56,471 bases of DNA from a virus (taxonomy: Duplodnaviria > Caudoviricetes): positions 1-56,471 of the IMG/VR virus record IMGVR_UViG_3300027851_000033. One strand, given 5' to 3'. Both the position numbers and the translations under genes were made by a program. The notes beneath the pieces are model-generated. The model was given only the letters and a program-made list of their open reading frames with translations. It was not told the DNA's origin and did not search any database. Below, in pieces: positions 1 through 55,110 of this stretch (within the stretch, counting starts at the first letter, position 1; the number at the start of each line of letters is the position of its first letter).

Positions 1-134
1 GCGAGGCGTGCGCCAAAGCGGCAGAGGGATTCACAGACTACCGCGACGACCGCAAGTGGGTGCCGGGGAGCCTGTACGACACCCTGCGGCGCGAAACGGC
101 TGCATTCATTCGCAAGCGCTCTAACGTAAAGTAG
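1..134 (+). CDS. 3' part of the cassette L gene (continues from 56327..56471; ...EACAKAAEGFTDYRDDRKWVPGSLYDTLRRETAAFIRKRSNVK*)
   Basis: Frame starting at position 3 is open to TAG at 132-134 and joins the ORF at the right end in frame. Confidence 0.7.
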   Translation, partial: EACAKAAEGFTDYRDDRKWVPGSLYDTLRRETAAFIRKRSNVK

Positions 135-143
135 ACACCTAAT
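119..143 (-). mobile_element. Putative attI-like recombination site at the integrase-proximal end of the cassette array
   Basis: Minus strand reads ATTAGGTGTCTAC-TTTAC-G/TTAGAG: a core R box, a 5-bp spacer and an L-like box, with no attC hairpin. Confidence 0.6.
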
Positions 144-148
144 CATAA

Positions 149-1147
149 TCAAATGCGTCCTGCTATATCCTCGGCGGATTCTCGATAGTAGACTTCCGAG
201 AGCATGCGAATATCCTTGTGTCCGCTGATCTTAGCTAGGGTTAGAACATCAACTTTACGCGCCAGCAAGGTCAAGGCTTCCGCTCTCGCATCGTGAAAAT
301 GCAGGTCATTGATCATTAATCTATCCCGCGCCTTGCGAAACAGCGCATCCAGCGAAGCAGAGGTAATGTGAAACCATTTGCCACGTCCCGCCATAGGGCG
401 CATCAGACGAATCGCCTTGCCTGTCAGCGGTATCAGTCGCGGCTTGCCAGTAGCGTGAAGTCGCTTATGGTTTCCGATGGTGCTGACCCGCTTGGTTAGA
501 TTAACCGTCGAATCCGATAATTGAAGCACCTCGCCAGCCCGCATTCCGGTACGAAGTGATATTAAAAAAGCCAGCGCCACCTCTTGCTGCTTGGTTTCTG
601 GTGGACGACCTGATCGGTACTCCAGCAAGCGACAAAGCGCCCGCACCTCGCACGGCAACACGCGCCTATCTCGTGATGGTTGTTTGGATGGCAAGCGCAA
701 CCCTACCCACGGGTTCTTATCCATCCAGCGCCATTCCTCACGGCAAACACGAAAGGCGTTTCGCAGCCAATTCACATCCCGCAGCACGGACGCAGCCGAC
801 ACGACTTTCAAGCGCGCATCACGCCATGCCACCAAATCAGGCGTATCGACTTCGGATAGCTTCTTGTCGGCTAATTCTGGAAAGTCACGCAGCAAGGCAT
901 TAATCCTGAGTCCTTCCGCCCGTTCACCGGCTTTCAAAGGCGTGATCTTGTCGAGGTAATTTTCCAGCATGCCCCGAACCGTATGCAACTCTGCCGGTGA
1001 GCGTTGCAGGTTGTCCCGTAGCTGGTTTTCTGTGGTGGAAGCCCACGCCTGCGCCTCTCGCTTCGTGCGACATATCCGTGTTAACCGCCGCTTGTTAACC
1101 GTGACAATCGCCCGCCAGCCCGACTTATGGGCAAAGATTGAAGCCAT
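149..1147 (-). CDS. int: Phage tyrosine integrase (not IntI-type)
   Basis: Catalytic motifs TGMRAGE, HFHDAR, SGH and VYY; N-terminal arm-binding-like segment; adjacent attP. Confidence 0.92.
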   Translation of the reverse strand: MASIFAHKSGWRAIVTVNKRRLTRICRTKREAQAWASTTENQLRDNLQRSPAELHTVRGMLENYLDKITPLKAGERAEGLRINALLRDFPELADKKLSEVDTPDLVAWRDARLKVVSAASVLRDVNWLRNAFRVCREEWRWMDKNPWVGLRLPSKQPSRDRRVLPCEVRALCRLLEYRSGRPPETKQQEVALAFLISLRTGMRAGEVLQLSDSTVNLTKRVSTIGNHKRLHATGKPRLIPLTGKAIRLMRPMAGRGKWFHITSASLDALFRKARDRLMINDLHFHDARAEALTLLARKVDVLTLAKISGHKDIRMLSEVYYRESAEDIAGRI

Positions 1148-1423: not shown

Positions 1424-4400
1424 TCAAGACCCTGCTACACGCTCCATGAATTCCTTCTCTACGGCTTGTTTTTTCTCTATCTGTGCTTTTGCCTTGGCGT
1501 TAAACTCGTCTCTATCTATACCTTTTTTCTGGAATTCACGCTTAAGCGCCGTGATATTTTTATCAATCTCCATCATCTTTGCCTGCGCCGCACGCTGAGC
1601 ATTAAGTCTCAGCACGTCAGGCGGATAGCTTCCGAGCTTGATCCCGACCGATGAGATGATTGACTGTGCCAAACTCTGCTCACGACCAAATGAATCAGTC
1701 TTCCCGCTTCCGGCATTGGAGATACCTGTCCATGCGTAAGTCCCAGGAAGGACAGCAATGTTCGGCGCGAACGCCTTGTAGAGGTAGTCGGTCAGCTTCG
1801 CTGCTTGTTCATAAGCGGTATCCGTTTCCAACGTAATGCTCTTGCCGGTAAATCCTTGCTTATTCAGCATCAGTTCTGCCATGAGCGCAAGTGGCCCGCC
1901 TGGTGTCATTGATGGGAGGATGGGCAACGCAGCGTGACTCTGACCAGCGTCAAATATATCGCCTACAGGTATCCAGCGCCGGATGTCCAAGAATACCGGT
2001 GATCCATTGGCATCATTCCATGGCATGCGTATCAGCTTGGGCGTAATACCCCAAATCCTACCAGCTTTTTCCTCCGGCAACAGTTTGCGTTCGTCGTCTT
2101 CATCGCCACCCGACAGCATGTAGCCAAGCGCGTTAATCGCTCCCGCCAGCAAACCCAGCTTAATTAGCTTCCACGGCTTCTTGGCTGCGATTTCCAGCAT
2201 CATCGGCGCTGCGCGATAAGTGAATGCAACGAACGGTAGCGCTGTGCTTCTCATCATCTGAACCCATGGTGCATTGATGTTGTAGTCGAGGAATGACTTA
2301 CGCGCCACCTTTCCAGCAACTTGGTCAGTCGCACCATCTTCCTTGGCCTTAAGCCAAGCCGCAAGACGGAAGACCTGATCCTCGGCTTCATAAAGATCAA
2401 TCATTGCGCGTGCCGTTTTGACGGTGATTTTTCCCGCTGCGCTTGGCTTAAGCGCATCCCATGCAGACGGGAAGCGCCCTTTGAGCGCCAACTGCAAAGC
2501 GGACATGACACCTACCTGGCCAGTCACATTACCCGCGATGCCAAGCTCTTTTCCCAGCGCATCTAATAATGGGCGCAGCTGCTCCTGCTGCAATTCCTTT
2601 GTTACCCATGTTCCGATAGAGCCGCCAGAATCACCGAAGCGTGCCAGCACCTCATCCGCCGCCGCGTCCTTGGAAGTCATCAGCCTGAGTGCCTTGAGGA
2701 CATGCCCAGCCGTCACATCATGCCAATCTGCCATGACAAAGTTCGCCATGACGTTGTTCATGTGGACAGCGGGGCTCAGGGCAGTTTTTGAAGCTTTCCA
2801 TGCGCGATGAATCGCGGCGTAGGTTTCGCCCAAGGGTTGATAGCGGAAGCCGATCGTCTGCCGCACATCATTCCAGATAGGTGCCGGTAGATAGCGGCCA
2901 GCCAGCGCCCCGTATCGCTTGACCTTCGTGCCTGGGACAACTACATCAGGCACTTTCACCCACTCACCTGTTTTGTATGTGTCACGCATGCGATCAGATG
3001 CCTCGACAATCTTGCCATCAATTGCTTCGCCGTCTATCTTGGCGTAATTCTGCCCAAGCCATTGCAGGTATTTACCCGTTTCAACATCGTGGATCATGCC
3101 GTGCAAGGTCTTGGCTATCGCGTAGCGCGCCTCATCAATCTCACCCATCAACTCGCGCTCTTGCTTGGTGAAGTCGCGCCAGACAATGAGATTATTTCCC
3201 TTGGTATCGCGGACTTCCCATGTTCCCATCTGATCCCATGCGCCATAACGCGCGGGGATGGCTTCTCCTGCTGGCCAGTAAGCCACCTCCAGCAGTCTTC
3301 CCTTGCTCTTGTCGCTCATGCCGGGAATCGCCGCCGTGCCTTCGCCGGAAGATGCCCGGCGTTCCAGCCGGATGAATCGCTCACCCTTCAACTGTTTGTC
3401 AGCCTTGCCTTGCTGTGTTTTGCGATTCCACCACTCTGGCGAACCGTTCTTGATCTTCGCCATATCCACGGCATCCGTCATCCCGCGACCTTTGTATTGA
3501 TCGCCCAGGACAGCAATAGCGCGTTTCCTTGCTGCCGTCTCGCCGCCGGTCAATTCTGCCGTATGCTTAGCATAGCTACGGTGCAGATAGGCGAATCGAT
3601 TGCGCTTGTAGGCTTCCTCATCCAATTGGCCGAGGCGTACCGCTTCTTTCGATAGGCCGTCAATCATTTTCTCAACTTCAGCCAGCGTCTTGATTGACTC
3701 GGGCGGCAACTGTTCCATGAACCAGTCGGAAGACTGCGGATTATCCGTGTTCATCCATTCATAGGCGATACGACTTTCTGCCCTGGTCAGGGTAGATAAC
3801 TTCTCAAGCAATGTGCCAGCCGCACGAAGCTGACGTTTCTGCCGCCCCTGAACGATAGCGCGCTGATCTATAACAGCCTCGGGGATGCCGTAATCAGACA
3901 CCATGCCAGCCTTGATGGTTTCCGGCGTCCAGCGATCCAGCAAGAAACCGGCCTTGTTGTAAGCCGCCATAGTCAGCTTGTCAATCTGTGCGGCCTGCAT
4001 GACACCTTTTATTAAAACATCGAAAGGACGTGGTGTGCCTGCTTTCGTTTGAATAATAGTCTCGGCACGCTGTTCAGAGGTCGGCGCTAGTGATACAGCG
4101 TGGGACAGGCGCGTTCCCGTTGATATGCTGCCACCCTTACCGGAACGCACCCATTCGCGTGCCGTGCCCAGCAAGTCGGCCACATATAAATCCGCCTGCT
4201 GCTGTTCGCTCAACCCGGCATTCAGCCATTGATCCAGCTTGGCCGCCAGTAATTTTGCCCCGGCCTTGTTCAACCAGTTGCGCACTACCTGCACCACCTT
4301 GCGCCAGCCGCGTAGCTTGGCGAGTTCAACATCTGGAATGTCCGCCAGCACTTCTTCAACTGCGTCCAGGTTTGACTTGAGTCCACGTGCATCACGCATC

Positions 4401-7400
4401 TGTATCGCGGCCTTGCGCACTTTGGCATTCATCAATAACACATGCTGGAGCGCAGAATCAAGCTCCTTGCCTACCGCGCCACGCAGTCCGTAGTGTGTTA
4501 TTTCATGAGTTGCCAGCACATGCTCGGCGCGCGCTTCGTCGGCCATGCCGGAGGCAAACAGGTAAATCTCGCCCTCGTGGGTTGCGCCCTCTACGTCATT
4601 CCAAGCGTCTGACTTCTTGATGAAGTCGCGCAATGCCTTCTGCGTCTGGTCATTGGTGGATAGATCAGCGGGCGATGCGAAGACATGCACCCGTGGCAGG
4701 TTCTTGAAGCCCTTGGAGACACGATCAACCACAGCATGCAGGTCGCGCAAGGCCATACCACGACCAGTTGATTTTGTATCAACGGCCTTGCCACGATAGG
4801 CGGTCATGAACAACGGATAAGCGGCCTCCGGCATGTAGTTCTTCGCCGTCAATCCCCGCGTTGCAAACAGCTCTGCCTTCTTCAGCATCAGCAGAGCTTC
4901 GGCATCTGTCTTTGCTTCGAGCGAATTGGCCAGCCGATGCAGCCCCATTGAACGAAGCAGGCTTTGCAATACTGCCGCGAACCGCTTCCATCCCTTCAGA
5001 GATTCACCTGTCTGCGCAATCTTCGCCAGCGCTTCGTCGATTGAGATATAGTGGATGTCGTTATCTGATAGGCTGTAGTCTGATTTCAGGTCGGCGATCA
5101 GGTCGATATTCTTGCTTCGCCACGCTGCCGCCATCAATCTCACGCGAGGATTAGCGTCATGAATCTCACCAAGCGCCGCATCAAGTGCCGAACCAAAGAA
5201 TCCCCGAAGGCCAAAATGAGCAAGTTCATGGAAGGTGACTTCCCTTACATCTTCCGCGCTTCGGATTCCACCAGCCACGAGGTAGAGCGTCCCCTTATAC
5301 ATAGCACCACGGGTATCACTGGGCGCATCGAAGGGAAGGTCAGACGGGCGCCAGACTACCTTTACATCCGGCGCATTTCCAAGGCCACCAAGTATATTAT
5401 CCGCCTCTTGACCCACGCTGGCGATTGAAACACCCCCCGCCAGCGGGTTGTCGGCACGCGATAGTCTCGGTGTATCTGTACTGTTATCCTGCTGATCCGT
5501 ATTTTCATCGGATGCCTGGTCTGCCATCATCGCCGCTTCCAGCGCATCAGCCTCGCTGATCCTGTTCGACAGTTCCTGAGCAAACTGGAATTTCGCATCC
5601 AGCCGATCCACCAGCGCCGCACGCTTGGCCTTGGCGTCCTCGATCCGCTGTTTGAGTTCAGATGGTTTGCGTGCCAGCGCTGCAAGCGTGTTGGTCGCAC
5701 GCATCGAGATACCTACGGGGTCATCATTGACATCGCGCACAAGGACATGCGCTTCCTCACCCAATGTCATACCCAGTTGCGAGCGGTATTCAGTCACTTT
5801 GTCATCAAAGTCACGCACGATCTTCCCGAAAAACTCAATAGGAAAACTGGAGATTTCACCGATCTTGAAGCGGCCATCTTTGCCGTGTGCAGCGCTCTCC
5901 TTGAATTTTGCCAACAGAGCTTCAGCCCACTCCTTGCGCTTGTCGAAAACCTTGTCCCCGGCTCTGGCCTTAAAGTTTTCTCCGGAAAGATCAACAACCT
6001 TTTTGGCCATCTTTTCAGCCGCAGGCAGTTGTCTATCCGCCGAAGCAATCCACTCGCCAGCCAGATCATAATCATGCCGCAACCGAGACCGGGTTTCTTC
6101 ATGGGCGCGGAACAGTCGCTGATACTTCGATATGTCTGCCTTGATGCCTGCCAATTGGATAGCACGCGGGTCGCCTGCCGTCATTGCGGTAGCAATCTGG
6201 AACTGGCTGACATCACTCAAGTCATCTATTGAGCGGACAGACGTATCACCCGATAGCGCCTGGTCAATAAACTGCTGTTTGCTGGCTAGCATTTGCCACA
6301 TCACCGCGTCATAGCTCCCCTTGGTCGAGAAAGCATAAATCTCCACCAGCGGGTTCTTGTTGCCCTGACGGATGATACGGCCTTCGCGCTGCTCCAAATC
6401 GGCTGGATACCATGGCGTATCAAGATGGTGCAAAGCGATCAATCGTTGTTGAGCATTAACCCCTGTGCCCATATTCTTGCTACTACCTACCAGAATGCGC
6501 ACCCGCCCGGCATTCACGTCCTTGAACAGCTTCAGTTTTGCTGTTGATTTCTTATGGTCGCCCATGAATGCAACCTGCTTGGCAGGAATGCCCGCATCAC
6601 GCAAGCGCTTTTCCATCCAGGCGCGGGCATTGAACCCACGATTTGCCGTCACACCAGCACCAAAGCCCAAGTCGGAAAACACCATCTGCGAACCACCCTT
6701 GTCCGGTTCCATCTGGCCATCCTTGCCCATGTATTCATTATTGGCCGTGCGCCGATAAACCTCGATCACGCCATCTATCATCTTGTTCAGCTTGGAATCC
6801 GGATCGGATGGCAGCGACGGATCAACAAACCGCATATCAATCGCCGCCAGTCGGCCATCGCCGATGATGCGAATGATCGGGTCTGGATTGTTTGGCTCGC
6901 CCTGGCTTGGCTTCCATGCCCGCGACTCTTCCAGCCGAAGAGCCAAAGCCTCCTTGTAGGCAGAATAATCTTCCGTTTGCGGCGTCACCTCCAGGCTACG
7001 CGAGCCGTTCTTGACCTTTGGCCGCTTGTCGCCCAACATCACCGCCAGATGGTCTGCCGTCAGTACATCGGAGAATTCACGAAACATCTGCGTCATTTCA
7101 GGCACATTCACGAACTTGGTGAACCGCGTCACCTGTGAGTATTTTCCAGAAGCATCCGCCTCGATCTCGGTATTTTCCTGGCCAAACATCGACGCCCAGG
7201 CATCGAAGTCCTGTAACCCTCTATCCTCTAGCGCTTGGGGTGACATGAATCGCTGCACAGAATAAAGCTCTGCCAGTGTGTTGGTAATCGGTGTGCCTGA
7301 CATCATGACCAATGAGCGCCCCGGCTTCTTCTGCTCCAGCCATCGGGTTTTCATCCACAAGTCAAACGCGCGGTCGGAGCCTGAAGAATCAATCCCCTTG

Positions 7401-10400
7401 ACCTGACGCAGGGTGGTGAAGGCCAGCTTGCGGAATTCATGCGCCTCATCAACATAAATTTGATCCACGCCCAACTGGTCAAAGCGCACATTCTTGTCCT
7501 TGCCGTCGGATGACATGGCCGCTTCCAGTTTTTGCTCCATCTTCTCGATGCGGTTTTGGATGTCGCGCACCTTGGGGTCGCGGCTACGCTGGCCCTCTTC
7601 GCCGCCCGCCTCTTCCAGTGCGGCACGCAGGTAATCCAGTTGCTCGGTAATCATCTTTTCCTTGAACTCCGGATCAAGGTCAAGCAACTTGAAAGCTGAA
7701 TGGGTAATGATGACGCCATCTACATCTGATAGCGCAACGCGCGACACGAAGCGGCGGCGGTTGTCGGTATGGAACTGCTTTTCATCAGCCACCATCAGTT
7801 TCGCAGTCGGATAAAGTTGCAGCCATTCCCGAGCAAACTGCTGGAGCATGTGGTTCGGCACTACCATCATAGGCTTCTTGACCAGACCAAGCCGCTTTTG
7901 CTCCATGGCAGAGATCACCGCTGCCCACGTTTTTCCAGCACCAACAGAGTGCGCCAGATAGGTGTTGCCCGACTGGATGATGCGCCATGCACCCCGTTTC
8001 ACATGGTCAAATACATTGATGGTCGACGTTTTCCCCGGCAAGGTCAGGTGGCGGCCATCGAAAGATCGGGAGACCGTGGTATTGAACTTGTCGTTATAGA
8101 CGCGTACCAACTCGTCAGTCCGTTGCCCATCTGTCCACAACCAGTCAGCAAAGGCTTCGCGCATCTGCGCCAGTTTCTGATTGGCCGCTTCGGTTGAGGC
8201 CGCATCGAATACGGACTTTTTATCTACCCCGCTGCCTTCGGTGCGCGTGATCCTGATCGGATTGCCTGACAGCGCATGCTGCAAGATTTCAGCAGCATTG
8301 CGATCTAGCGTGCCCCAGTCCGAAGTTGCAGCAGCCGAACTGTATCCCGACTTCGCCTCTACCGTCCATTGCCCGGTACGCTCGTTATAAGTAACCTTGG
8401 CCGTTATGCCTGCCTTTTCCTTGAGAAACTTCTCATAGTCGGATTCTGGAATCCAGTTCATGCCTATGGCTGCCGTAATATCCGATGGCGGCACTGGCGC
8501 AGGCTGCGCATTGATTAACGCCTCAATGTTGCGCTCATAGCGACGGTCAGTCTTGACAGATTCCTGCGCTTCTTTGAGTTTCTTCTTGACGTTGCCAGAC
8601 AGGTATTCGTCAGCCATCTGCCAACCGGCGGAAGGCGATTCATAAACCGCCGTGCCTAGCATTGCGATGGCTTCCTGCTCATCAATTCCCAGTCGTTCAG
8701 CGATCAACGGAATATCCACCTTGCCGGTATCGTTCAGCACCGACAGCAGCGCATCGTGCGGCGTCTCGATCCGTGGCGACGAAGGTTTGTTCAGGATGCG
8801 CGATGACAGCCACGGACTGGGCGTTATCTCTCCCGTCTCTTCATTTAGGACTTCCAGCGACTCAACCAGCGTTGAATCCGGATCATCGCTGATCTTGTTG
8901 CGCAAGTCGAATCGGCGCCATGTGACGGTATCCTCAATAGTTTCCCCGGTATCCTCATCCTGTTTCTTGGTGATGCGCTCAAAGGCCTTGTTTTGGAGAA
9001 GGTTGCCGTGCTTTTTAGTGAAGTCACGGTATGTCTTTTGCAACGCCTTCAGCGAGTCCTCCCATGGCCCATCATTCAACTGGTCGTAGTGGGATTGGAG
9101 CAGCGTATCGCGCAAGCGCACATAATCCTTGAGCAGCGCCACAGTCTTTTCGTTTTTACCGGCATCGGCACGCACCCCAACGCCGCCCTCGCGCTGCATC
9201 AGAATTCCTGCATCAGACAAGTAGTAGTTGCCTTCCTTCTGCGCTTTTGGGTTGAAGTCGATCTCTCGCACCTGCGCCGCTTTGGCGGCCGTTCCTGTTG
9301 CCTGGTAAATGTCTTTTGGCAGATTCTCTACCGCCGCATCGAATTGCGCCTCGATGTCGCCCTCCTTCGGCAGCACGGTGTATTCATCCTTCCCGTACAT
9401 CGACCCCTTCAGGCTATGTGTACCCAGCACCATTTCGGGGTGAGCGGCGAAGTATTCGTTGATGGTAGCCTGGCCTTCCGGCGTTTCGATCTGTTGCACG
9501 CCTATCCATGGCTGACGCGTAGTATTATTGCCATCAGTCGTTGCGCCCAAACGACCTCCGGGCGAGGATTGAAACTTACGCAGGAACAGCACATCGGTTA
9601 CGACCTCTGTGCCAGCGTTCTTCATGAATGCTGTTTGTGGTAAACGGATCGCGCCAATCAACTCGGCACGATCCGAAAGATACTTACGCGCCTTGTCGCC
9701 CTGTTTGTCCATGGTATAGCGGCTGGTCACATAGACCATCAGTCCGCCCGGCTTCACCTTGTCGATAGACTTGGCGAAGAAATAGTCATGGAGCGAAAAT
9801 GCCAGCCTCTTGTAACGTGGATCAGACAGAATCGGGATATTTGCAAACGGCGGGTTGCCAATCGCCACATCATAGAAGTTGTCCGGCAAGGCTGAGTCAA
9901 CGAAGCTCTCGACAGCAATGCGCTCATCCGGGAATAGTTGTTTGAGGATAGCGCCGGTGATGTTATCAAACTCGATACCGGTATATACAGAGTTGGTTGC
10001 CATGGCTGGCGTCATCAAGCCTGGGAATATGCCAATCCCCGCACCAGGTTCCAGAATAGCCCCGCCCTTGAATCCCATGCGATCCATGGCCTTCCACATG
10101 GATTGCACCACGGCGCGGCTGGTGTAATGCGCGTATTGCGTGGAACGCTCTGCCGTCGCCATCTCGTCTGCGGTCAACAGCCCGCGCACTCGCTCCCGTA
10201 GTTCTTTCCACTGCTTATCGAGTTCCCATGGACGAGTCGAAAAAATCTGGTTACGGATGCCGGAGGCACCCCAGCCGATGAACTTGGCCAAGATGGCTTG
10301 CTCGTCCCTGGTCGCCTGGCGCCCTTCGGCTTCGAGCTTCTTGATTAGTTCTACCGCGTCGACATTCTGTCGCGCCTTGGTCAGCCAGCCACCTTCATAA

Positions 10401-13400
10401 GTCAGATCGGCATCGCTGAACTGGTAGTTCAGTCCTGATTTTGCGGGGATGTCTCGTCCGGCGGGAATTCCAGTTGCTCGGCCAGCACGATTTCGCGTGC
10501 CGCCTGTATCGCGCTGTTCATTATCCCCGCTTTCTCCAGCGGGTCGTTGGTCTTTCCGTGCCCCTGGTTCGCTGCTATCTGGTGCGCCAAAGAGGTCGTC
10601 AGTGAATTGATTTCCTCCGCCCTGTCCTTGACGAACTCGTTGAGTTCCCCGTCTTCCTTGAGATCCTTGAGCAGTTCCGGAGCCTTGTTCTTGAGCGCTG
10701 CCAGAACCAGTTGTTCCATATTGTCCACTTGAGTCACTCCTTGACTTATTCTCAGTTTCAGTATATCCAGAATCTGATTTTTCTGCTACACTATCGCTGG
10801 AGGTTGATGATATGAAAGTTCCTGACAAATTCCCTGATGGATGCAAGTTCGGAATGGACTTGACCGATGACGACGGTGTTGAGTTGTTGTATGTCGAATT
10901 CCCAGGCGGAGAGAGATTCGTACTCAACGAAAAGTCACCTTGGGATGGCATGGAACCTACAACGTGGTGGCCGTTGCGCTGGTCAAAGATTTCCGAGGCT
11001 GACTTTTTAGAAGCCGCCAAGGCCGCCGCGTAAAGTTCTTTCTGCACCGAGTCTGATTCCGCTTTCTCTGGTGCTCCCTGCTGCGCGGCGCGGGAGATTT
11101 CATACAGCTTATGCCCTGATCCAGCCTTGGCGGCCATCATCGCCGGGATGTTGATCTGGATTTCGGCAACAGTTCCGTTCGGCATTGCGACATTGACAAG
11201 CACGTCCATGTAGCCGTCTGGTGATTTCTCCACAACCAGATTTGACGCATTCAGAGAAATGTCTGTTTTGTTCTTGACGCGCTGGATGGTGAATTCCTTG
11301 CCTATCTCATTCAACACAACCTTCGCGTCATCGTAGGAATTAACGACGATTGTCGAACGTATCAGGTCGCGCATCTTTGTGCTGTCAAACTTGTTATCAT
11401 TCACCAGCTTCTCGACTGACCGCTCGATTCGCTTTACAGGGGCCAGCATTTGACCGATAGCGCCTGTGCGCTTTGAAATGTCGATTATCTTTTGATCGAA
11501 AGCAACCTTGGCCTCTTCCGCAAGCTTGAGCATCGGACGAAGAATCCCGTAGCCCCTCTCCCGATCTTCTGGACTAACATGCAAGACTGGCGCTGACTCA
11601 CCATCAAAGAATTGGTCAATCATCCTTTTGGCTTTTGAAAGTATCTCTTCGCCAATGAATTTCGACTCATCCTGCGGAACGTAGTTATCTCGCTTCATGT
11701 CATACGGGCGGCCATCTATCATCGCCGTCTTGCCAGCACCGACTTTTGGTTGCGAGTCAAACAATCCACCCTGATCCGCTTTCGGTTTGCGCGCTGAAAA
11801 CAGATCGCCTTGCGGTGCAGCGTCGGTATTATCTAGTGCCTTGAGCGCAGCCTTTCGATAAGTCGCATTGTCGATCTTGTTCCAAACGGATTTGAATTCC
11901 GGGATTTTCTTGAGCGCGTTCTTGACGTGCGCCATCAACACCTTCATGTCATGGCCGACTTCGGCAATCCCTACCTCAAATAGCTTCACCAATGTCGGCA
12001 TCAGCCCTGGCGTATCCTCGGGTATCACCCGCGCTACGTTCGCATGATCCCGGACAATTGCCCCAAGATCGGCCAAGGCTTCATTCCATTGCTGGTTGAT
12101 CGCCTCGCGCCGCGCATCTACCGACACGCCTTCGGATCGCTTGACGCTAGGAAATTGATTAACCTCATCAAGTAGTTTTTTAATAGGCGCATCAAACTGG
12201 ATTACTTTTACTGGCTCATTCAAGGCCAGCGCCGCAACCCATTGATGATGTCCGTCCAATACGTGTCCATCAGATGAAGCCAGGACAGAACGATCAACCC
12301 CGTCCCGCACTTCCTTCCACGCCGCCGCCTTCTTTCTTGAAAACTCAGCCTGGGTCGGCTTAAGGTCAGCCGCTGGAATATCCAGGGTACGGCTTTCTAT
12401 GCCCCGCCCCTTGAGGAATTGAGTCAGCGCCCCGCGATGCTCGCTCTTAACCTGCGGCATTTCCGCGCGCGGAACGCCCAGCGTGCCGCTATCAGGTGGG
12501 AAAGCTACCCATTCGTTGTTGGGGTTTCCTTCGGCGGTTTCATTGCGGCTATTGCCTGCTTGATTGCCCTGCGCATCTTGGGGTTGGCTTCGATCTTCTT
12601 GAGTAACCCCATTGTTTTCGGCATCGGTACTACGGGTTGTTGGTTCGCCATTGACGGCCCTCCTCGCTACTTCCATTAAATCACTTTTGGCAGGCGTTGT
12701 CTTGCCCCCGAAAATATCCTCTTGCCCTGGATTCCCTGCCGCTGTCAGCGCATCCAAATATGACTGGATGAATTCAGCAATTCGGCGCGGGCTGCGCGCG
12801 GCTTCATTCAACAGCATCAAAATTTGCTTTGACTCTGGCGATAGCTTGTCGCCAAAAATTCCGGCCTGTGCCAGCGCATCTTCGACTGAAACACCCTTCT
12901 TCTTCAGTTCTGATAATTCCTCTACCGCCGCCATCAGGTCGGGCGTAATATCCGCATCATGCAGTGCCCCTTCGCCAATGGCCTCGCGTGCCTTGGCGAT
13001 GTTTGGTGCAACACGCAGTAGCGCCTTGCTCACATTACGCAAGTCGTCGTCGACGCTCTCCACCATGCGCAACAGGACGGGGGAATCCCCATAGGCTTTA
13101 GCCAGTACCGCATTGCGGATGCGCGTGTATCCTGTCTGCGAAAGCTGCCCGGACGAATCAATCAGCCCGGACTGCTCGGTCACTGGCAACTTGGCCATGA
13201 AGCGCCGCACGAAGGGCCGCGACGTACCTGACATGAAGTCGCCCTGCTCATCAGGATTCAGGTCATCCAAGCTGTCCATCTGCATTGCATCCGACTTGGC
13301 TTGTTCGCTGGGACTCATGCGCGCCACCGTTGAGGCGTTGGCTTGACGCGCGAACTCTGCTCGATTTACCGGGGTTTGCCTGATACGCACCAGCACAGGC

Positions 13401-50663: not shown

Positions 50664-50942
50664 TTGAACAAGGCAGACGAGAACGCATTGACCGAATACT
50701 GGCACCGCGAAACGCGGTACGTAAACGATAAGGTGGATGAAGCATTCAAGGACGCGCAAGACCACGCCTACGCACTTGGACTGAAACGCGGCAAGGAGGA
50801 GATGCTGGACTATGCGAAGAGACTGGTTGCGGCCAGAGACGCCGAAGACCAGCGCGAATGGACGGCGATCATCAGCGCGATCTGCAAACTCGGCGCTGAC
50901 AAGACGGAGAACTGGAATGACAGACTACAAAACCCTGTTTGA
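50664..50942 (+). CDS. Hypothetical protein
   Basis: AAGGAG RBS with TTG start. Confidence 0.6.
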   Translation: MNKADENALTEYWHRETRYVNDKVDEAFKDAQDHAYALGLKRGKEEMLDYAKRLVAARDAEDQREWTAIISAICKLGADKTENWNDRLQNPV

Positions 50943-51393
50943 GCAGGCAGTACGCACGCTGGCCGCGATTGATGAGGCGCTTGGCATCGGTGATGACGGA
51001 TGCGGCGACCCCGACCAGACGCTGCACGCGATTGCAGAACTGAAGGCTCTCCAAAAAATGGAGGCCCCACAACTGCGCAAGATTCACCCGCTAGATTTTC
51101 CGATTGAAGTGTTTTTGGCTGACCTGACAACACGAACGGCAAACATCATCCGAGCCGAATTGGCAGGGTTCGCCTCATTCGCCGGAACAGGAACATTCGA
51201 CATTGAGCCGCCATTTACTGTGCGCCATCTGTGCATGTTCAGCCGTAGTGAAATTCGAAAGTGGCCGAACTTCGGGCGCAAGAGTTTAAACGAAGTGGAG
51301 GAAATGCTGCGGGCTAGAGGCTTGCAGTTGTGGGAGAAGCACGACGATAGATCGCTGCGCCTGCTACGTGAACATAAGGAGTATTTCAAATGA
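50917..51393 (+). CDS. Protein with RNA polymerase alpha-CTD-like domain
   Basis: LTTRTANII...TVRHL...SEIRKWPNFGRKSLNEVEEMLRARGL. Confidence 0.75.
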   Translation: MTDYKTLFEQAVRTLAAIDEALGIGDDGCGDPDQTLHAIAELKALQKMEAPQLRKIHPLDFPIEVFLADLTTRTANIIRAELAGFASFAGTGTFDIEPPFTVRHLCMFSRSEIRKWPNFGRKSLNEVEEMLRARGLQLWEKHDDRSLRLLREHKEYFK

Positions 51394-51647
51394 CGACCGT
51401 GACCAAGGAAATGATCGGCGCTGCGCATGACGTGACGCTCGAAAGTGGCGATGGACGCAGCGCGATGAAAACGTGTGCGACCTGCAACGCCAGCCACAAG
51501 AACACCGTTGAGCGCGTGCTGCGCTGCATGGGTTGCGTGGCAAAGCCGAGCGGCAACAGCAACTGGCGGCCATTGGTGCCTAACGATGCAGTTCAGGGGC
51601 GCGAGGCGGCCTTATCGGCGGAGCGTCCCTCTCGAACGCAGGGTTAG
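51390..51647 (+). CDS. Small Cys-containing protein whose 3' end reads through attC1
   Basis: CATC...CMGC; the C-terminus from PNDAV onward is attC sequence. Confidence 0.5.
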   Translation: MTTVTKEMIGAAHDVTLESGDGRSAMKTCATCNASHKNTVERVLRCMGCVAKPSGNSNWRPLVPNDAVQGREAALSAERPSRTQG

Positions 51648-51649
51648 AA
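51578..51649 (-). mobile_element. attC1 (72 bp)
   Basis: Minus: TTCTAAC-CCTGC-GTTCGAGA...CCTGAAC-TGCATC-GTTAGGC. Confidence 0.85.
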
Positions 51650-51732
51650 ATCATGGCGATAGTGAAAACTGGCGATTGCCCCTATTGCGGAGCGCCGAAC
51701 AAGCGCAAATGTTTTTGTAAACGGAGATCGAG

Positions 51733-51999
51733 ATGCAAGAACTACTGATGATGTACGACCCGGCAACCGGAATGCAAAAGCCCTACCCGAGCCACGCCGA
51801 GCAATGGCGGAAGTTTCACGGCGAGATGGCATGGCTGTTCAATCCTTGGACAGGCACAAGGCGGCACGCTCTTGATGTTGGTAGCGACACCTTTGGGCGT
51901 GGTATTCGCATAGAGGATTGCTTAGAGCGCGCGGCAGTGATGAGCCAAGCGCAGGGATCAAGCCAACAAATACGCGGAGGAATTCTCCGTGACGCATAA
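51733..51999 (+). CDS. Cassette A gene (88 aa)
   Basis: GGAG RBS; TAA stop lies in the next core site. Confidence 0.7.
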   Translation: MQELLMMYDPATGMQKPYPSHAEQWRKFHGEMAWLFNPWTGTRRHALDVGSDTFGRGIRIEDCLERAAVMSQAQGSSQQIRGGILRDA

Positions 52000-52075
52000 C
52001 GTAGAGCTAAGGGGCCGAGCCGCAGGCGAAGGTCCCGTGGAGCGAAGCGGAACGAACTTGAGCGCCGGGTTAGGC
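51994..52075 (-). mobile_element. attC2 (82 bp)
   Basis: Minus: GCCTAAC-CCGGC-GCTCAAGT...CCTTAGC-TCTAC-GTTATGC. Confidence 0.9.
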
Positions 52076-52098
52076 GGCGCAGACATTGGAGACAGCAA

Positions 52099-52350
52099 AT
52101 GAGACAACCTCACGAATTGATGGCAGATGACTATTGCGGACCCTCGAAAGTGATTAACTTGGGCCAGATTCAAAACCGCGATGGGTTCAGATTCATCGGT
52201 ATCGACAAGCACGGCAAAGAGCATTTTTGCATTGTCCGCAAGGGTGACGGCGGATCGTTTTACATGAACAGCAACACGGCGCTGTTTGAGGATTTGTGCG
52301 GATGGCTGCCCGATCCTGATGCGCCGACTTTTGGAGGTAGCGAAACATGA
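52099..52350 (+). CDS. Cassette B gene 1 (83 aa)
   Basis: GGAG RBS. Confidence 0.7.
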   Translation: MRQPHELMADDYCGPSKVINLGQIQNRDGFRFIGIDKHGKEHFCIVRKGDGGSFYMNSNTALFEDLCGWLPDPDAPTFGGSET

Positions 52351-52556
52351 GCATTCACGTTTGCAAATGCACTCACAACGGGCGCGAGGAATACCACCTG
52401 CGTTACCCCGGAATGACCGAAGCGGAGGCGCGAGAACTGGCCGACAGAATCAACGGCGGATGGCTCCGGCCACCAGAGAAGCCGAAGGGCGGATTGGCCG
52501 AAGCGGTCAAGATAGCAAGGGGCGGGGATGCACCGATACCGTTCAAGAGATCGTGA
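52347..52556 (+). CDS. Cassette B gene 2 (69 aa)
   Basis: GGAGG RBS and ATGA overlap. Confidence 0.65.
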   Translation: MSIHVCKCTHNGREEYHLRYPGMTEAEARELADRINGGWLRPPEKPKGGLAEAVKIARGGDAPIPFKRS

Positions 52557-52557
52557 C

Positions 52558-52635
52558 CCCTAACGCCGGAGTTAAGGCGGCTGCCGAAGGCAGTCCGGCG
52601 ACCGAAGGGAGCGAACCTTGAACGACTTGTTATGC
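52558..52635 (-). mobile_element. attC3 (78 bp)
   Basis: Minus: GCATAAC-AAGTC-GTTCAAGG...CCTTAAC-TCCGGC-GTTAGGG. Confidence 0.9.
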
Positions 52636-52755
52636 GCTGACGGTTACTGGTGCGTGGTTTGTGGGCGATACCTGCCCGACGATGACGGGGTGGTTGTTCA
52701 CGACGACGTGCCACACCCGGAGATGACTTTCGACGAAGAGGAAAGGCCGCAATGA
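52618..52755 (+). CDS. Cassette C gene 1 (45 aa, MNDLLCADGYWCVVCGRYLPDDDG...), start inside attC3
   Basis: GGGAG-6nt-TTG inside the attC; CxxC motif; ATGA overlap with the next gene. Confidence 0.5.
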   Translation: MNDLLCADGYWCVVCGRYLPDDDGVVVHDDVPHPEMTFDEEERPQ

Positions 52756-52946
52756 GCGAGAACGGAATTACCCACTACTGCCTCGGCAACGGGGAGTTGA
52801 AGTGCGACGGCTGCGGGCAGGAAAAGAACTGGCAGACGTTGAACCAGATGCCCGACGCGCTGCGGAAGACGCTGCAAGCGCAGGCGCAACGGATCGACGA
52901 CACCGACTGCATCCTGTCCGGGCGCCCGTGGTATGTGGGCGCATAA
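52752..52946 (+). CDS. Cassette C gene 2 (64 aa, Cys-rich)
   Basis: TAA stop lies in the next core site. Confidence 0.65.
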   Translation: MSENGITHYCLGNGELKCDGCGQEKNWQTLNQMPDALRKTLQAQAQRIDDTDCILSGRPWYVGA

Positions 52947-52996
52947 CGCTTGAATTCAGCGGCGGCGAAGCCGTCCGCTGGAATGATTAGTTGGGC
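52941..52996 (-). mobile_element. attC4 (56 bp)
   Basis: Minus: GCCCAAC-TAATC-ATTCCAGC-GGACGGCTTCGCCGCC-GCTGAAT-TCAAGC-GTTATGC. Confidence 0.92.
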
Positions 52997-53021
52997 CTCG
53001 ACGGCCCGGAAAGGAAACGAC

Positions 53022-53381
53022 ATGAGCTTGCACGATGAAATTCGGAGTGCCCAGATACGAGCGGGCGAGGACGCGGTGATTCGCAACCTGGAACGCTTGG
53101 GATTCGCGCCATCTGCGCCGCAAACGGAAAGCCGACTGGAAGTGCTGGAGCGCGAACACCAAGAGTTTTTCGAGCGCTGGCATGCCGAGCGACGCAAACG
53201 CGAAGAGCTGGAGGATGCGATACGCGACATATTCCCGGCAGCGCACCGGCTGGCACTGGAGTTGGAATGCCTGCTGCTCGACACCAAGGACACAGCAGCG
53301 GTAAGCAAGTGGTGGGACTCGGCAAACGAAGCGCTGGAACAGTGGCGCGAGTTCTGCCGGGAAGAGACGCACAACGCTTAG
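53022..53381 (+). CDS. Cassette D gene (119 aa, coiled-coil)
   Basis: AAGGA RBS before MSLHDE; stop lies inside attC5. Confidence 0.7.
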   Translation: MSLHDEIRSAQIRAGEDAVIRNLERLGFAPSAPQTESRLEVLEREHQEFFERWHAERRKREELEDAIRDIFPAAHRLALELECLLLDTKDTAAVSKWWDSANEALEQWREFCREETHNA

Positions 53382-53431
53382 GTGAGGCGCGGGCGGCTTT
53401 TCGCCCGTCGCGCTCGACCGATGGGTTAGGG
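53369..53431 (-). mobile_element. attC5 (63 bp)
   Basis: Minus: CCCTAAC-CCATC-GGTCGAGC...CCTCACC-TAAGC-GTTGTGC. Confidence 0.88.
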
Positions 53432-53436
53432 GTGCG

Positions 53437-53724
53437 GTGGATAACAGAAAGGATGAAGCGATGAAATCACAGATGCGCATGGAGTTTGAAGCACGACATG
53501 GGTTTGAGGTTTGCGACGACATGGATATTCAAACATCCGTTGCATGGGACAACTGGAAAGAGGCGTGGAAGGCGGCAATAGATCACGCCCGCTACAAAGC
53601 CAACGAGTGCGCCGACAACAACGCATACACGCCTGCGCAGAAACGGGCGCTTGGCGCTTGGCTGCAACGGGTTGCACTGACGGTCGAAGACGAAACCCCT
53701 AACGCTGAGGTAACCGGCGCATGA
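53437..53724 (+). CDS. Cassette E gene (about 87-95 aa)
   Basis: WDNWKEAWKAA pattern; ends inside attC6 (TPNAEVTGA*). Confidence 0.65.
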   Translation: MDNRKDEAMKSQMRMEFEARHGFEVCDDMDIQTSVAWDNWKEAWKAAIDHARYKANECADNNAYTPAQKRALGAWLQRVALTVEDETPNAEVTGA

Positions 53725-53775
53725 CAGCAAGCGAAGCGCCGCTGGCAGGCGTCCGCGTTGATTGATTAGTTATGT
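53697..53775 (-). mobile_element. attC6 (79 bp)
   Basis: Minus: ACATAAC-TAATC-AATCAACG...GGTTACC-TCAGC-GTTAGGG; the L boxes pair imperfectly. Confidence 0.8.
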
Positions 53776-53779
53776 TTCT

Positions 53780-53832
53780 TTGCGTAGATACACAAACAGC
53801 TTGACATTGTTTGATTGCGTGACTACACTAAC
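53780..53832 (+). promoter_or_regulatory. Cassette F sigma70 promoter (TTGACA-17-TACACT) with direct repeats TTGCGTnnnTACACnAAC 35 bp apart
   Basis: -35 at 53801-53806, -10 at 53824-53829; repeats start at 53780 and 53815. Confidence 0.8.
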
Positions 53833-53860
53833 AATATCAACAACGCAAACGGAGAACGAA

Positions 53861-54058
53861 ATGAAAACAGCCTACGAACTTCTGATGACCGCCCCGGATA
53901 GCCAAGTGAAGCGGGCACAGATCGCCTTCAGGGCGGTGGCCGATGGTCAGTGGCTTGACGCGGCGCACAGCCTGCGCAATGCGGCGAACGAGGAAACCGG
54001 CCAGTGGGCGAACGAAGCCCGCGAACTGGCGGAACACTGCGAACAGGTGGCAGCGTGA
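53861..54058 (+). CDS. Cassette F gene 1 (65 aa)
   Basis: GGAG RBS before MKTAYEL. Confidence 0.7.
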   Translation: MKTAYELLMTAPDSQVKRAQIAFRAVADGQWLDAAHSLRNAANEETGQWANEARELAEHCEQVAA

Positions 54059-54213
54059 TGTGGAAGGTTGAACGAGACAAGGTTGTTGTGTGCCGCCAAG
54101 TGGTCGCCCCCTACATCGTCGGGACGTACCGCTGGCGGTGGGTTGCGGTTGTTGTTGCGTGGGCGCTGGCGCATGGTTGGTGGGGTTGTTATGTGAGCGA
54201 GGCCGACGAATGA
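54058..54213 (+). CDS. Cassette F gene 2 (51 aa, hydrophobic, Trp-rich)
   Basis: TGATG coupling upstream and ATGA coupling downstream. Confidence 0.55.
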   Translation: MWKVERDKVVVCRQVVAPYIVGTYRWRWVAVVVAWALAHGWWGCYVSEADE

Positions 54214-54386
54214 ACGCGCAACGTGGCGGGCCGGGACGCGGCCAAGGACGCAAGCCGATAGCCAAGGACGGCGAACTGATGCGCGCCCGCCCGGTGCGAA
54301 TGACCGACGAGGAATGGGCGAAGTGCAAACGCCTCGGCGGGGCAGCATGGGTGCGGGCGAAGATCAAGGCTGCCCGTGAAACATAA
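54210..54386 (+). CDS. Cassette F gene 3, small RHH-like DNA-binding protein
   Basis: RGGPGRGQGRKP...PVRMTDEEW...LGGAAWVR; TAA stop in the core site. Confidence 0.75.
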   Translation: MNAQRGGPGRGQGRKPIAKDGELMRARPVRMTDEEWAKCKRLGGAAWVRAKIKAARET

Positions 54387-54449
54387 CGTGTAGGTAAGCG
54401 GCCGTGAGCGGCCTTATTGCGAACGGTCCGCTTGACCGTAGGGTTAGAG
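54381..54449 (-). mobile_element. attC7 (69 bp)
   Basis: Minus: CTCTAAC-CCTAC-GGTCAAGC...GCTTACC-TACAC-GTTATGT. Confidence 0.92.
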
Positions 54450-54461
54450 GTCAACTTGACT

Positions 54462-54776
54462 ATGGCAAATTTACTGGAACAACAACGATACATCACGGAC
54501 GTTATTGCCCCCGCTGCCCGTAAAGCGGCTTCTGGATACCCACGCGCTCACCAGATGCGAAGCGAGAGGCAAGACGGATACAACATGCTCCACGGACGAC
54601 CGCACGGCTTCAAGTGGCGACCGATCTACAGCGTTACCGTTGAGTTCGAGAGCGCAGAAAAGGCGCAGGAGTTTTTCGAGTCGCTGCACGAGAGTGGGAT
54701 TGTGACCTCTAACGCAGAGTTCAGGCCGCTGGACGCGGCTTCATCGCGGCCAGTCGCGCCTGGAACGACGGGTTAG
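54462..54776 (+). CDS. Cassette G gene, reads through attC8
   Basis: MANLLEQQ...; the TAG stop is in the far core site of attC8. Confidence 0.6.
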   Translation: MANLLEQQRYITDVIAPAARKAASGYPRAHQMRSERQDGYNMLHGRPHGFKWRPIYSVTVEFESAEKAQEFFESLHESGIVTSNAEFRPLDAASSRPVAPGTTG

Positions 54777-54778
54777 AG
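54707..54778 (-). mobile_element. attC8 (72 bp)
   Basis: Minus: CTCTAAC-CCGTC-GTTCCAGG...CCTGAAC-TCTGC-GTTAGAG. Confidence 0.92.
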
Positions 54779-54811
54779 CGCCGCTGACGACAATAAAGAA
54801 AGGAACGAATC

Positions 54812-55009
54812 ATGACCGAAGACCAGTACAAGAACGCGAAGCAATTGAAGTCCGAAATCGGCAACTACAAGGGGGCGCTTGATTCCCTGATTGACGAGCG
54901 GAACTACCTCGATTTGCCACAGGAGATGTACGACCGCCACATGACCGAAAAGAAAGCGTTCCTAGAAGCGGAGCTGGCGCGGCTGGAGGCGGCATTTGCT
55001 GCGCTCTAA
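54812..55009 (+). CDS. Cassette H gene (65 aa)
   Basis: AAGGA RBS; TAA stop in the core site. Confidence 0.75.
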   Translation: MTEDQYKNAKQLKSEIGNYKGALDSLIDERNYLDLPQEMYDRHMTEKKAFLEAELARLEAAFAAL

Positions 55010-55074
55010 CGCCCGAAATGAGGGGGCGGACGCAGGTTTATCGCGGACGCTCCCTCTCGATTGACTGGTTCGGC
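55004..55074 (-). mobile_element. attC9 (71 bp)
   Basis: Minus: GCCGAAC-CAGTC-AATCGAGA...CCTCATT-TCGGGC-GTTAGAG. Confidence 0.85.
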
Positions 55075-55110
55075 GGCGTCTTACCAGCGCCGACTTTTGA
55101 AAGGGTGGTG

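Follow-up and report, generated by a model that had tools for sequence, protein, structure and literature searches.

How an integron-type cassette array is held in a phage genome, and whether the short sequence at one of its ends is a true insertion site, are the questions raised by this locus. Integrons are treated as bacterial devices in which the integrase, the insertion site and the array travel together, whereas the phage studied here keeps a site and 12 cassettes without the integrase. The stretch of DNA that was analysed (the window) is the whole of an IMG/VR virus record that is rated complete, with a length of 56,471 bp. Two features show that it behaves as a circle: the R boxes of cassette 12 are complementary across its two ends, and an ORF at 56309..56470 continues in frame into 3..134. 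The integron-integrase profile TIGR02249 has no match anywhere in the 56,471-bp record; with 12 attC sites and no such match the window carries a CALIN, and, intI being absent, it is not a complete integron. No tRNA genes were found in the window.

The array was delimited with a covariance model (R1) built from the 12 repeats of the window and four from a relative. The model matches exactly 12 attC sites in the window (41.7–66.3 bits), all on the + strand, the same number of cassettes as had been counted by an earlier reading made from the sequence alone (hereafter the sequence-only reading). The array occupies 51578..56303 (+), with attC 1–6 at 51578–51649, 51994–52075, 52558–52635, 52941–52996, 53369–53431, and 53697–53775, attC 7–12 at 54381–54449, 54707–54778, 55004–55074, 55250–55307, 55892–55960, and 56237–56303 (all +), and cassette genes between the sites on the + strand. 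The sequence after 51584 is a 72-nt imperfect palindrome ending in GTTAGAA. At the other end, cassette 12 extends on to position 124, and the R box CTCTAAC at 119..125 (+) pairs at 7/7 positions with the GTTAGAG that starts this cassette (56297–56303). The first six bases of the box are the end of cassette 12, which is closed by CTCTAA|C, and the sequence after it is not attC. In other collections R1 found no attC at E ≤ 0.001 in 80 viral loci with relatives of the window's phage integrase (913,729 bases), and an attC search of MAGs G001–G003 gave just 8 scattered matches.

The polarity of the array was determined by comparison with the class 1 integron of plasmid R100, whose aadA1 attC was folded as a control. 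On its gene-sense (top) strand the aadA1 attC has two bulged bases in the 5' arm; on the bottom strand the bulges are in the 3' arm and consist of a T and a G at a distance of six bases. The window attC sites fold on the + strand in the bottom-strand pattern of R100, with the bulged T and G in the 3' arm (e.g., ...GGT C CGCTT G ACC in the site at 54381–54449). According to work attributed to Bouvier, Nivina, Mazel and colleagues, it is reportedly the bottom strand of attC that is recombined, with a cut between A and C in the R box at its 5' end. As the recombinogenic (bottom) strand is the + strand of the window, an IntI-type cut would fall at AA|C of the R box that starts each site, which puts the attI–cassette junction at 124|125 and the distal boundary of the array at 51583|51584. 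The crossover was placed at 124|125 on the basis of this polarity and of the joints of a natural insertion in a relative (L170, described below). The attC polarity thus marks the R box at 119–125 as attI-proximal and the attC at 51578–51649 as distal, and the site does lie at the cassette-entry end of the array.

The sequence-only reading had proposed that joining 51583 to 125, which removes the whole array, restores an attI-like dyad in the phage genome. The letters of the two parts (119–143, and ATTGGTGCCTAAC at 51572–51584) are as it gave them, and the join falls within a shared TAAC, at AA|C. ORF 51390 stops at once after the join, as had also been noted, since AAC becomes codon 65 and is followed by GTA AAG TAG (126–134), giving ...PNVK and a stop. 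In the window the R box is followed by the 5-nt simple-site spacer GTAAA (126..130, +) and by the L box GTAGACACC (131..139, +), an inverted imperfect copy of the R box; positions 131–143 read GTAGACACCTAAT. A remnant of a third box (TAA T CATAATC, 140..150, +) comes next. Compared by eye with L173 (at 4787) and L183 (at 5013), it has a single T in place of the 8 nt (ACAGGTGC) present in both, and this truncation, as far as sequence comparison tells, may cripple the site. The remnant overlaps by 2 nt the stop codon of the phage integrase (149–151), which is 5 nt off the site and so within the few bases that had been claimed.

The inverted L/R simple site is formed in the window only when both array ends are joined. 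When the left arm was globally aligned to the reverse-complemented right arm, 11 positions matched, one was mismatched, and two single-base gaps were needed (score 7). Among 199,979 random 13-mers of the window 23 scored as well, and among the 266 13-mers ending in TAAC one did, namely the arm itself; the outer 8–9 nt of the dyad alone were equalled by 287 of 199,987 random 8-mers. The two 13-nt arms therefore align far above random 13-mers, which bears out the imperfect inverted repeat and agrees with an R-box half at the far array end that would complete the simple site. Chance resemblance, with a secondary GTT site used once and a dyad arising by accident, can be given hardly any credence: insertion of the IntI type at non-att sites does occur in this group, as in L170, but the dyad statistics are against it, as is the conservation of the right half in both phages and bacteria.

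This conservation was traced with a motif (TAACGNNAAGTAGACNCCNAA) taken from the array ends of the window and of L163, the latter of which (GCATAAC GAGAA GTAGACCCC) resembles the former. The motif has exact matches in 11 viral records. An attC array is directly upstream of it in 9 of 10 loci searched, the tenth (L179) being a locus of 1,066 nt, and also in the eleventh record (L163/L180). The consensus of the element is xxTAA|C GNNAA GTAGAC(A/C/G)CC (T/A)AA, with the L box kept as GTAGAC(A/C/G)CC and the spacer as GNNAA across the 11 viral loci. In relatives a putative third box, e.g., ACAGGTGCCATAA(T)C, is usually next after the element, and a third box resembling GGTGCC-ATAAC follows the L box both in viral relatives and in the bacterial locus L210. 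The right half is an array-end element in 10/11 other viral records, and so it is conserved and not a mere truncated attC. The segment could be what a deletion left of an attC (R box, spacer, beginning of an L box), since on the + strand a regular attC opens in a similar way, with an R box, 5 nt, and GT...; such an origin is nevertheless very improbable, given that GTAGACNCC is found in 0/16 aligned attC sites, that R1 has no match in 119–143 at E ≤ 1, and that the element is kept where arrays end in 11 viral records and beside bacterial intI genes.

The sequence-only reading had further suggested that related phages might show an empty site, and none turned up: in viral contigs there is no second exact match to the 25-mer from the right half, and the contiguous R-spacer-L pattern matches only in L173, L178, and L181, in no case beside a plain phage gene. 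Uninterrupted units of the form GGGGCC TAAC GCCAA GTAGACACC TAA are present in L173 (three in tandem, with a 30-nt period) and in L178, and differ by eye at 3/27 positions from the site obtained by joining the array ends. These units are situated within the arrays, as three tandem copies in L173 (3665–3751) and one copy in L178 (4861–4893). Each directly precedes a regular attC, and the third box thus seems able to receive cassettes. The arrays of related phages have the terminal element in common and carry different cassettes, while single cassettes are common to several arrays at differing positions. Cassettes of this type move as units in the relatives. A search for IntI in five other phage records found none encoded.

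The gene that ends beside the site encodes a phage tyrosine integrase of 332 aa (149..1147, –; Pfam Phage_integrase, 2.5e-15). The protein was considered as an IntI and rejected, because it belongs to the generic Phage_integrase family and has no TIGR02249 match at E ≤ 0.01 in NCBIfam, where its best match is Xer-like (~33 bits). Its relatives number 2,156 at E ≤ 0.001, including proteins named from Paraburkholderia, Ralstonia, Achromobacter, and Cupriavidus, and the closest by protein search are 92, 87, 87, and 80% identical (P0001–P0004); the relatives compared on contigs have an identity of 65% or less. None of the 160 loci with such relatives (44–65% identity; 1,446,899 bases) contains the motif with up to one mismatch, and inspection by eye of the 110 nt after the stop codon of 159 integrase relatives revealed no such site. 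Many proviral records start exactly at the integrase start codon, which suggests that attP is on the other (5') side of the gene. The absence of the motif from these 160 loci, together with the proviral starts, makes it unlikely that the integrase acts on the dyad site. Being shaped like the core site of a tyrosine recombinase, and with 5 nt between it and the integrase stop codon, the dyad might be the attP core or some other site of this enzyme; we see very little chance of this, in view of the same two results and because the element adjoins terminase, lysis, or NinG-like genes in other phages. The genes downstream of the element vary among the phages (terminase-like, endolysin/lysis, NinG-like, and xis-like), so that the integrase neighborhood is peculiar to the window, and the proposed tie between the site and the phage integrase, including a segment conserved beside the int 3' end, was not upheld.

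Homologues of the element in bacteria identify it. A sample of 401 genomes from the order to which G001 (a MAG with the title 'Burkholderiales bacterium') belongs contained two with the motif, G290 and G400, and in both it adjoins intI remnants. In G290 an ORF that begins ~110–115 nt past the motif, in the same direction, matches the first 76 positions of the integron-integrase profile (L202:14800–15237; TIGR02249, 5.9e-35), the match being under the full-length cut-off because the gene is internally deleted. In G400 the motif is followed by the same promoter region and the first intI codons, ~110 nt on and in the same direction. The intI genes beside the exact-motif attI are thus degraded, with an internal deletion in one (L202, 14800–15237) and first codons only in the other (L201, 380–520), and each genome has a second intI elsewhere, which is intact in G290 (C8) and has one in-frame TAA stop in G400 (C12).

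An IntI above the curated cut-off is encoded by 18 of 41 relatives of G290. The upstream regions of 19 intI loci were examined (L219, cut at the contig start, was left out), and four of them (L205, L206, L208, and L210) have AAC(G/T)NNAAGTAGAC(A/C)CC with 0–1 mismatch upstream of an intact intI (460–499 bits), in the same orientation and 140–165 nt ahead of the profile match. Another four intI loci have variants of the core with three mismatches, and the remaining loci have no core or less than 200 nt of upstream sequence. The spacer in the bacterial sites is G/T-N-N-A-A. The R1 matches to attC in 11 bacterial intI loci are upstream of intI and on its coding strand in 23/23 cases, the same relation between attC and intI as in the R100 control. 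The IntI of G001 itself, a MAG with a relative of the 158-aa module discussed below, is accompanied by an attI1-like site rather than by this element. All sequences except the R100 control are from metagenome assemblies or MAGs. The position of the element in genomes of the Burkholderiales order, ~110–165 nt upstream of intI and in the same orientation, indicates that it is a real attI, and 119–143 of the window is, as judged from these alignments, homologous to the L-box side of a real attI family. The sequence-only reading was therefore right to call the site attI-like. The bacterial homologues are within ~200 bp of the 5' end of an intI, which the window site is not.

The window site shares several features with attI1 of class 1 integrons (R100). 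Both are at the intI-proximal end of an array, with the crossover in the GTT of an R box and an inverted L box bases away, and attI1 has a further R-like box on the intI side, where the window has the truncated candidate third box; the bacterial homologues of the window site are ~110–165 nt from the intI start, compared with ~140 nt in R100. On the other hand, there is no sequence similarity to attI1 past the core, and no intI follows in the window, where a generic phage integrase ends on the opposite strand instead.

We consider it fairly probable (roughly 0.7) that 119–143 is the L-box side of a genuine attI, carried together with the array by a temperate phage without an integron integrase. 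In the bacterial relatives intI follows attI, and the platform of the phage would be reduced to attI plus array. Cassettes could be inserted and reshuffled at the site by the IntI of the host, acting in trans in an infected cell or a lysogen; with no IntI in the window or in five other phage records, any activity would depend on an unseen host enzyme. All 12 cassettes would have entered at this site, and the left arm, as phage backbone, would be the native R half of the site, now at the far end of the array. These last two points had been put forward by the sequence-only reading, and for the left arm as the native R half of attI we see a little better than even odds.

The uncertainty over the left arm (51572..51584, +), which is a candidate for the native R-box half of attI with its flank or for the end of a 13th cassette, comes from the DNA beside it. 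The left flank of the array (50918..51647, +) consists of a gene for a 158-aa protein with an RNA_pol_A_CTD domain (RNA-polymerase-alpha-CTD-like; 50918–51393) and ORF 51390–51647, which ends inside the first attC (attC0). In L163 a homologous 158-aa module is one cassette among at least 10, and in both L163 and L170 the module is bounded by one attC and one R box. The left arm could therefore, by these comparisons, be a cassette end and not phage backbone. The same 14 nt (CATTGGTGCCTAAC) precede an internal attC in L178, after an unrelated ORF, and TTGGTGC-type sequences are found ahead of several further R boxes. In two studies, contigs of runs X2 and X4 carry 51542–51585 with other sequence on both sides. 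In the window the module homology starts at 50904, ~12 nt past the attC end of the relatives, and this start is for that reason not an IntI crossover. The distal end of a bacterial array was readable solely in G028, where an array of three attC has the attI/intI on one side and, on the other, an agmatine deiminase gene (PAD_porph, 4.7e-109). The far R box of this array, GTCTAAC, is the inverted counterpart of the L box and has no GGTG flank; the outer part of the dyad is thus no conserved requirement. In favor of a native R half are the dyad itself, the uninterrupted units of L173 and L178, and this far R box of G028.

Several of these observations would also fit a platform that is a relic, in which the attI half and the array were gained or inherited as a block, through phage–phage or bacterial-integron recombination, and are unused now or have never been used. 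The left arm would then be the end of a 13th cassette (the 158-aa gene plus ORF 51390) that has lost its own attC, and the dyad would reflect a consensus for IntI binding shared by sequences near R boxes. The cassette status of the module in L163 and L170 and its start at 50904, the identical arm inside L178 and the TTGGTGC-type sequences at other R boxes, the truncated third box of the window, and the lack of IntI in the phage records are all on its side. It is harder to reconcile with a dyad that is improbable by chance even given the TAAC end (1/266; outer arms, 287/199,987), with related arrays that combine one terminal element with different cassettes and hold single cassettes at differing positions, and, more weakly, with contigs of other studies that break at attC boundaries. 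On balance we regard a relic as unlikely, while leaving it appreciable weight.

Two further observations concern the small ORF of the module. The 158-aa module is homologous to L162, L170, and L171 up to a point at 51445–51452, give or take a few bases, and contigs of runs X3 and X5 switch at 51439 to another version of the small ORF, so that 51439–51452 looks like a recurrent recombination boundary inside ORF 51390. In L171 (2830–3500), a contig of a 'Burkholderiales bacterium' MAG, the 158-aa gene and a longer small ORF come before an excisionase-like gene and an integrase gene in convergent orientation, and no array separates them; the window has a similar gene order, and the integrase regions share just 68 nt at 78% identity.

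In L170 the 158-aa gene and a small ORF, preceded by one attC, are inside an HNH endonuclease gene, whose frame breaks at ...IDHI and resumes at NGDKHDN... after the insert. The insert ends as ...CACAT|C followed by the attC body on one side and as ...GCATAA|C on the other. The attC polarity predicts just this crossover, which here took place at a non-att (secondary) site. The region (8900–9700) looks like a natural IntI-type insertion with clean joints in another phage-like contig. A consensus for secondary sites of IntI insertion is said to have been described by Recchia, Stokes and Hall. The point of entry of the L170 cassette is G|AT, read on the complementary strand, and its attC has the polarity that IntI would give, in keeping with insertion at secondary or genomic sites mediated by IntI as given in the available portion of Loot et al. 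(bioRxiv 10.1101/2022.09.11.507474). The window differs from such systems in that its site is a conserved attI and not a random GTT, and L170 is a relative only.

The cassettes of the phage arrays and those of the bacterial arrays share their attC architecture, with complementary R boxes, an unpaired spacer, two bulges 6 nt apart, and a variable loop, and R1 finds the attC of bacterial arrays beside intI as well as those of phages. They differ in the direction of their genes. In the bacterial arrays with this attI the genes are on the strand opposite to R1, i.e., the attC top strand, as in cassettes for a GNAT (1.6e-13) and a TIR_2 (4.6e-08) protein, and the gene strand of the R100 aadA1 cassette is opposite to the R1 strand too. 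The phage cassettes are, from comparison of reading frames, inverted, with their genes on the attC bottom strand. For the 158-aa gene, tblastx gave 89.9% identity in the sense frame and 70–83% in antisense frames, and comparisons of frames with L176 and L173 gave 152 vs. 116 bits and 60 vs. 37 bits. With PHROGs, 1 of 15 + strand cassette ORFs was matched (phrog_34498, 1.7e-25) and 0 of 5 long minus-strand cassette ORFs, while four window cassette ORFs had no match in Pfam. The orientation was judged by homology and by these frame comparisons instead of by ORF length. The longest ORF was on the same strand in 28 phage cassettes and on the opposite strand in 19 (n = 47), against 3 and 3 in bacterial cassettes (n = 6), a test that is uninformative because antisense frames are GC-rich and ORFs run into the attC sites.

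With the genes on the bottom strand, each phage cassette has its attC first and its gene second, and several of the ORFs take the TAA in the following R box as stop codon. The whole array has the same direction as the early genes upstream of it, and the cassettes may be transcribed from the phage early operon, which would enter the array at its attI-distal end. Two cassettes of the window contain TTGACA-type promoter-like stretches (53790–53834 and 55328–55372; repeat D6, 73% alike) and could have their own promoters; each stretch is followed by a gene for one of two paralogous small basic proteins with a GRGQGRKP motif (54210–54386 and 55712–55897). A leader like CTTTTGAAAGG is often found before cassette start codons in 51733–56312, e.g., at 55097–55107 and 55981–55991, and such a leader is also present in the relatives L163 and L171.

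More broadly, freshwater and groundwater phages with integrase-less platforms may borrow host IntI in trans and maintain a cassette pool of their own, inverted and read from an early promoter toward attI. We put this forward tentatively, as somewhat less than an even proposition. It offers the testable idea that phages use the integron integrase of the host to swap their own accessory genes, and genes may by the same enzyme pass between phage and bacterial arrays. If the inversion is true, phage cassettes landing in a bacterial integron would be antisense to Pc and so silent. The inversion of cassettes relative to attC polarity is a difference that can be checked, and it bears on how cassettes are made and expressed.

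A phage array with attI has a precedent, as the accessible part of Qi et al. (2023, PMC9892861) describes 17 CALINs in phages, one of which, in the Shewanella prophage M16-3, has its own attI. Like the window, the M16-3 CALIN as described there is an attC array in a phage with no neighboring intI, preceded by a host-type attI (PMC9892861). The window differs from what that part gives for M16-3 in its long array of 12 cassettes, in an element recurring in 11 viral records, and in genes on the bottom strand (PMC9892861). The phages considered here are moreover from freshwater and groundwater and are related to Burkholderiales prophages, and as far as can be told from the same part of the source they may overlap the 17 CALINs (PMC9892861). 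Among the titles listed for work from 2022 on, none describes this phage group or inverted cassettes.

Sequences related to the array are distributed in metagenomes. Between 20 and 99% of the sampled words of 50900–56471 were recovered in 20 runs from 12 studies of freshwater, aquatic, groundwater, aquifer, and soil metagenomes. Contigs of four runs (four studies) on the array stretch cover differing subsets of the cassettes. Contig breaks coincide with attC boundaries, those at 51585, 55247, and 55308 being common to X2 and X4, which is weak evidence. Joints that skip whole cassettes (e.g., from 52943 to 53700, with 7 shared letters) have sides of less than 30 letters and come from contigs, and they are likewise weak hints; stretches that no contig covers carry no information either way.

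Elsewhere in the window, on the – strand at 1424–15271, a single ORF of 4,615 aa combines a ddrB-like ParB domain (3.7e-34) with an Eco57I-type methylase, an SNF2 helicase, and weak RelA/SpoT-like domains. It is presumably akin to the giant multi-domain anti-restriction proteins of some phages and plasmids, which would be its putative function.
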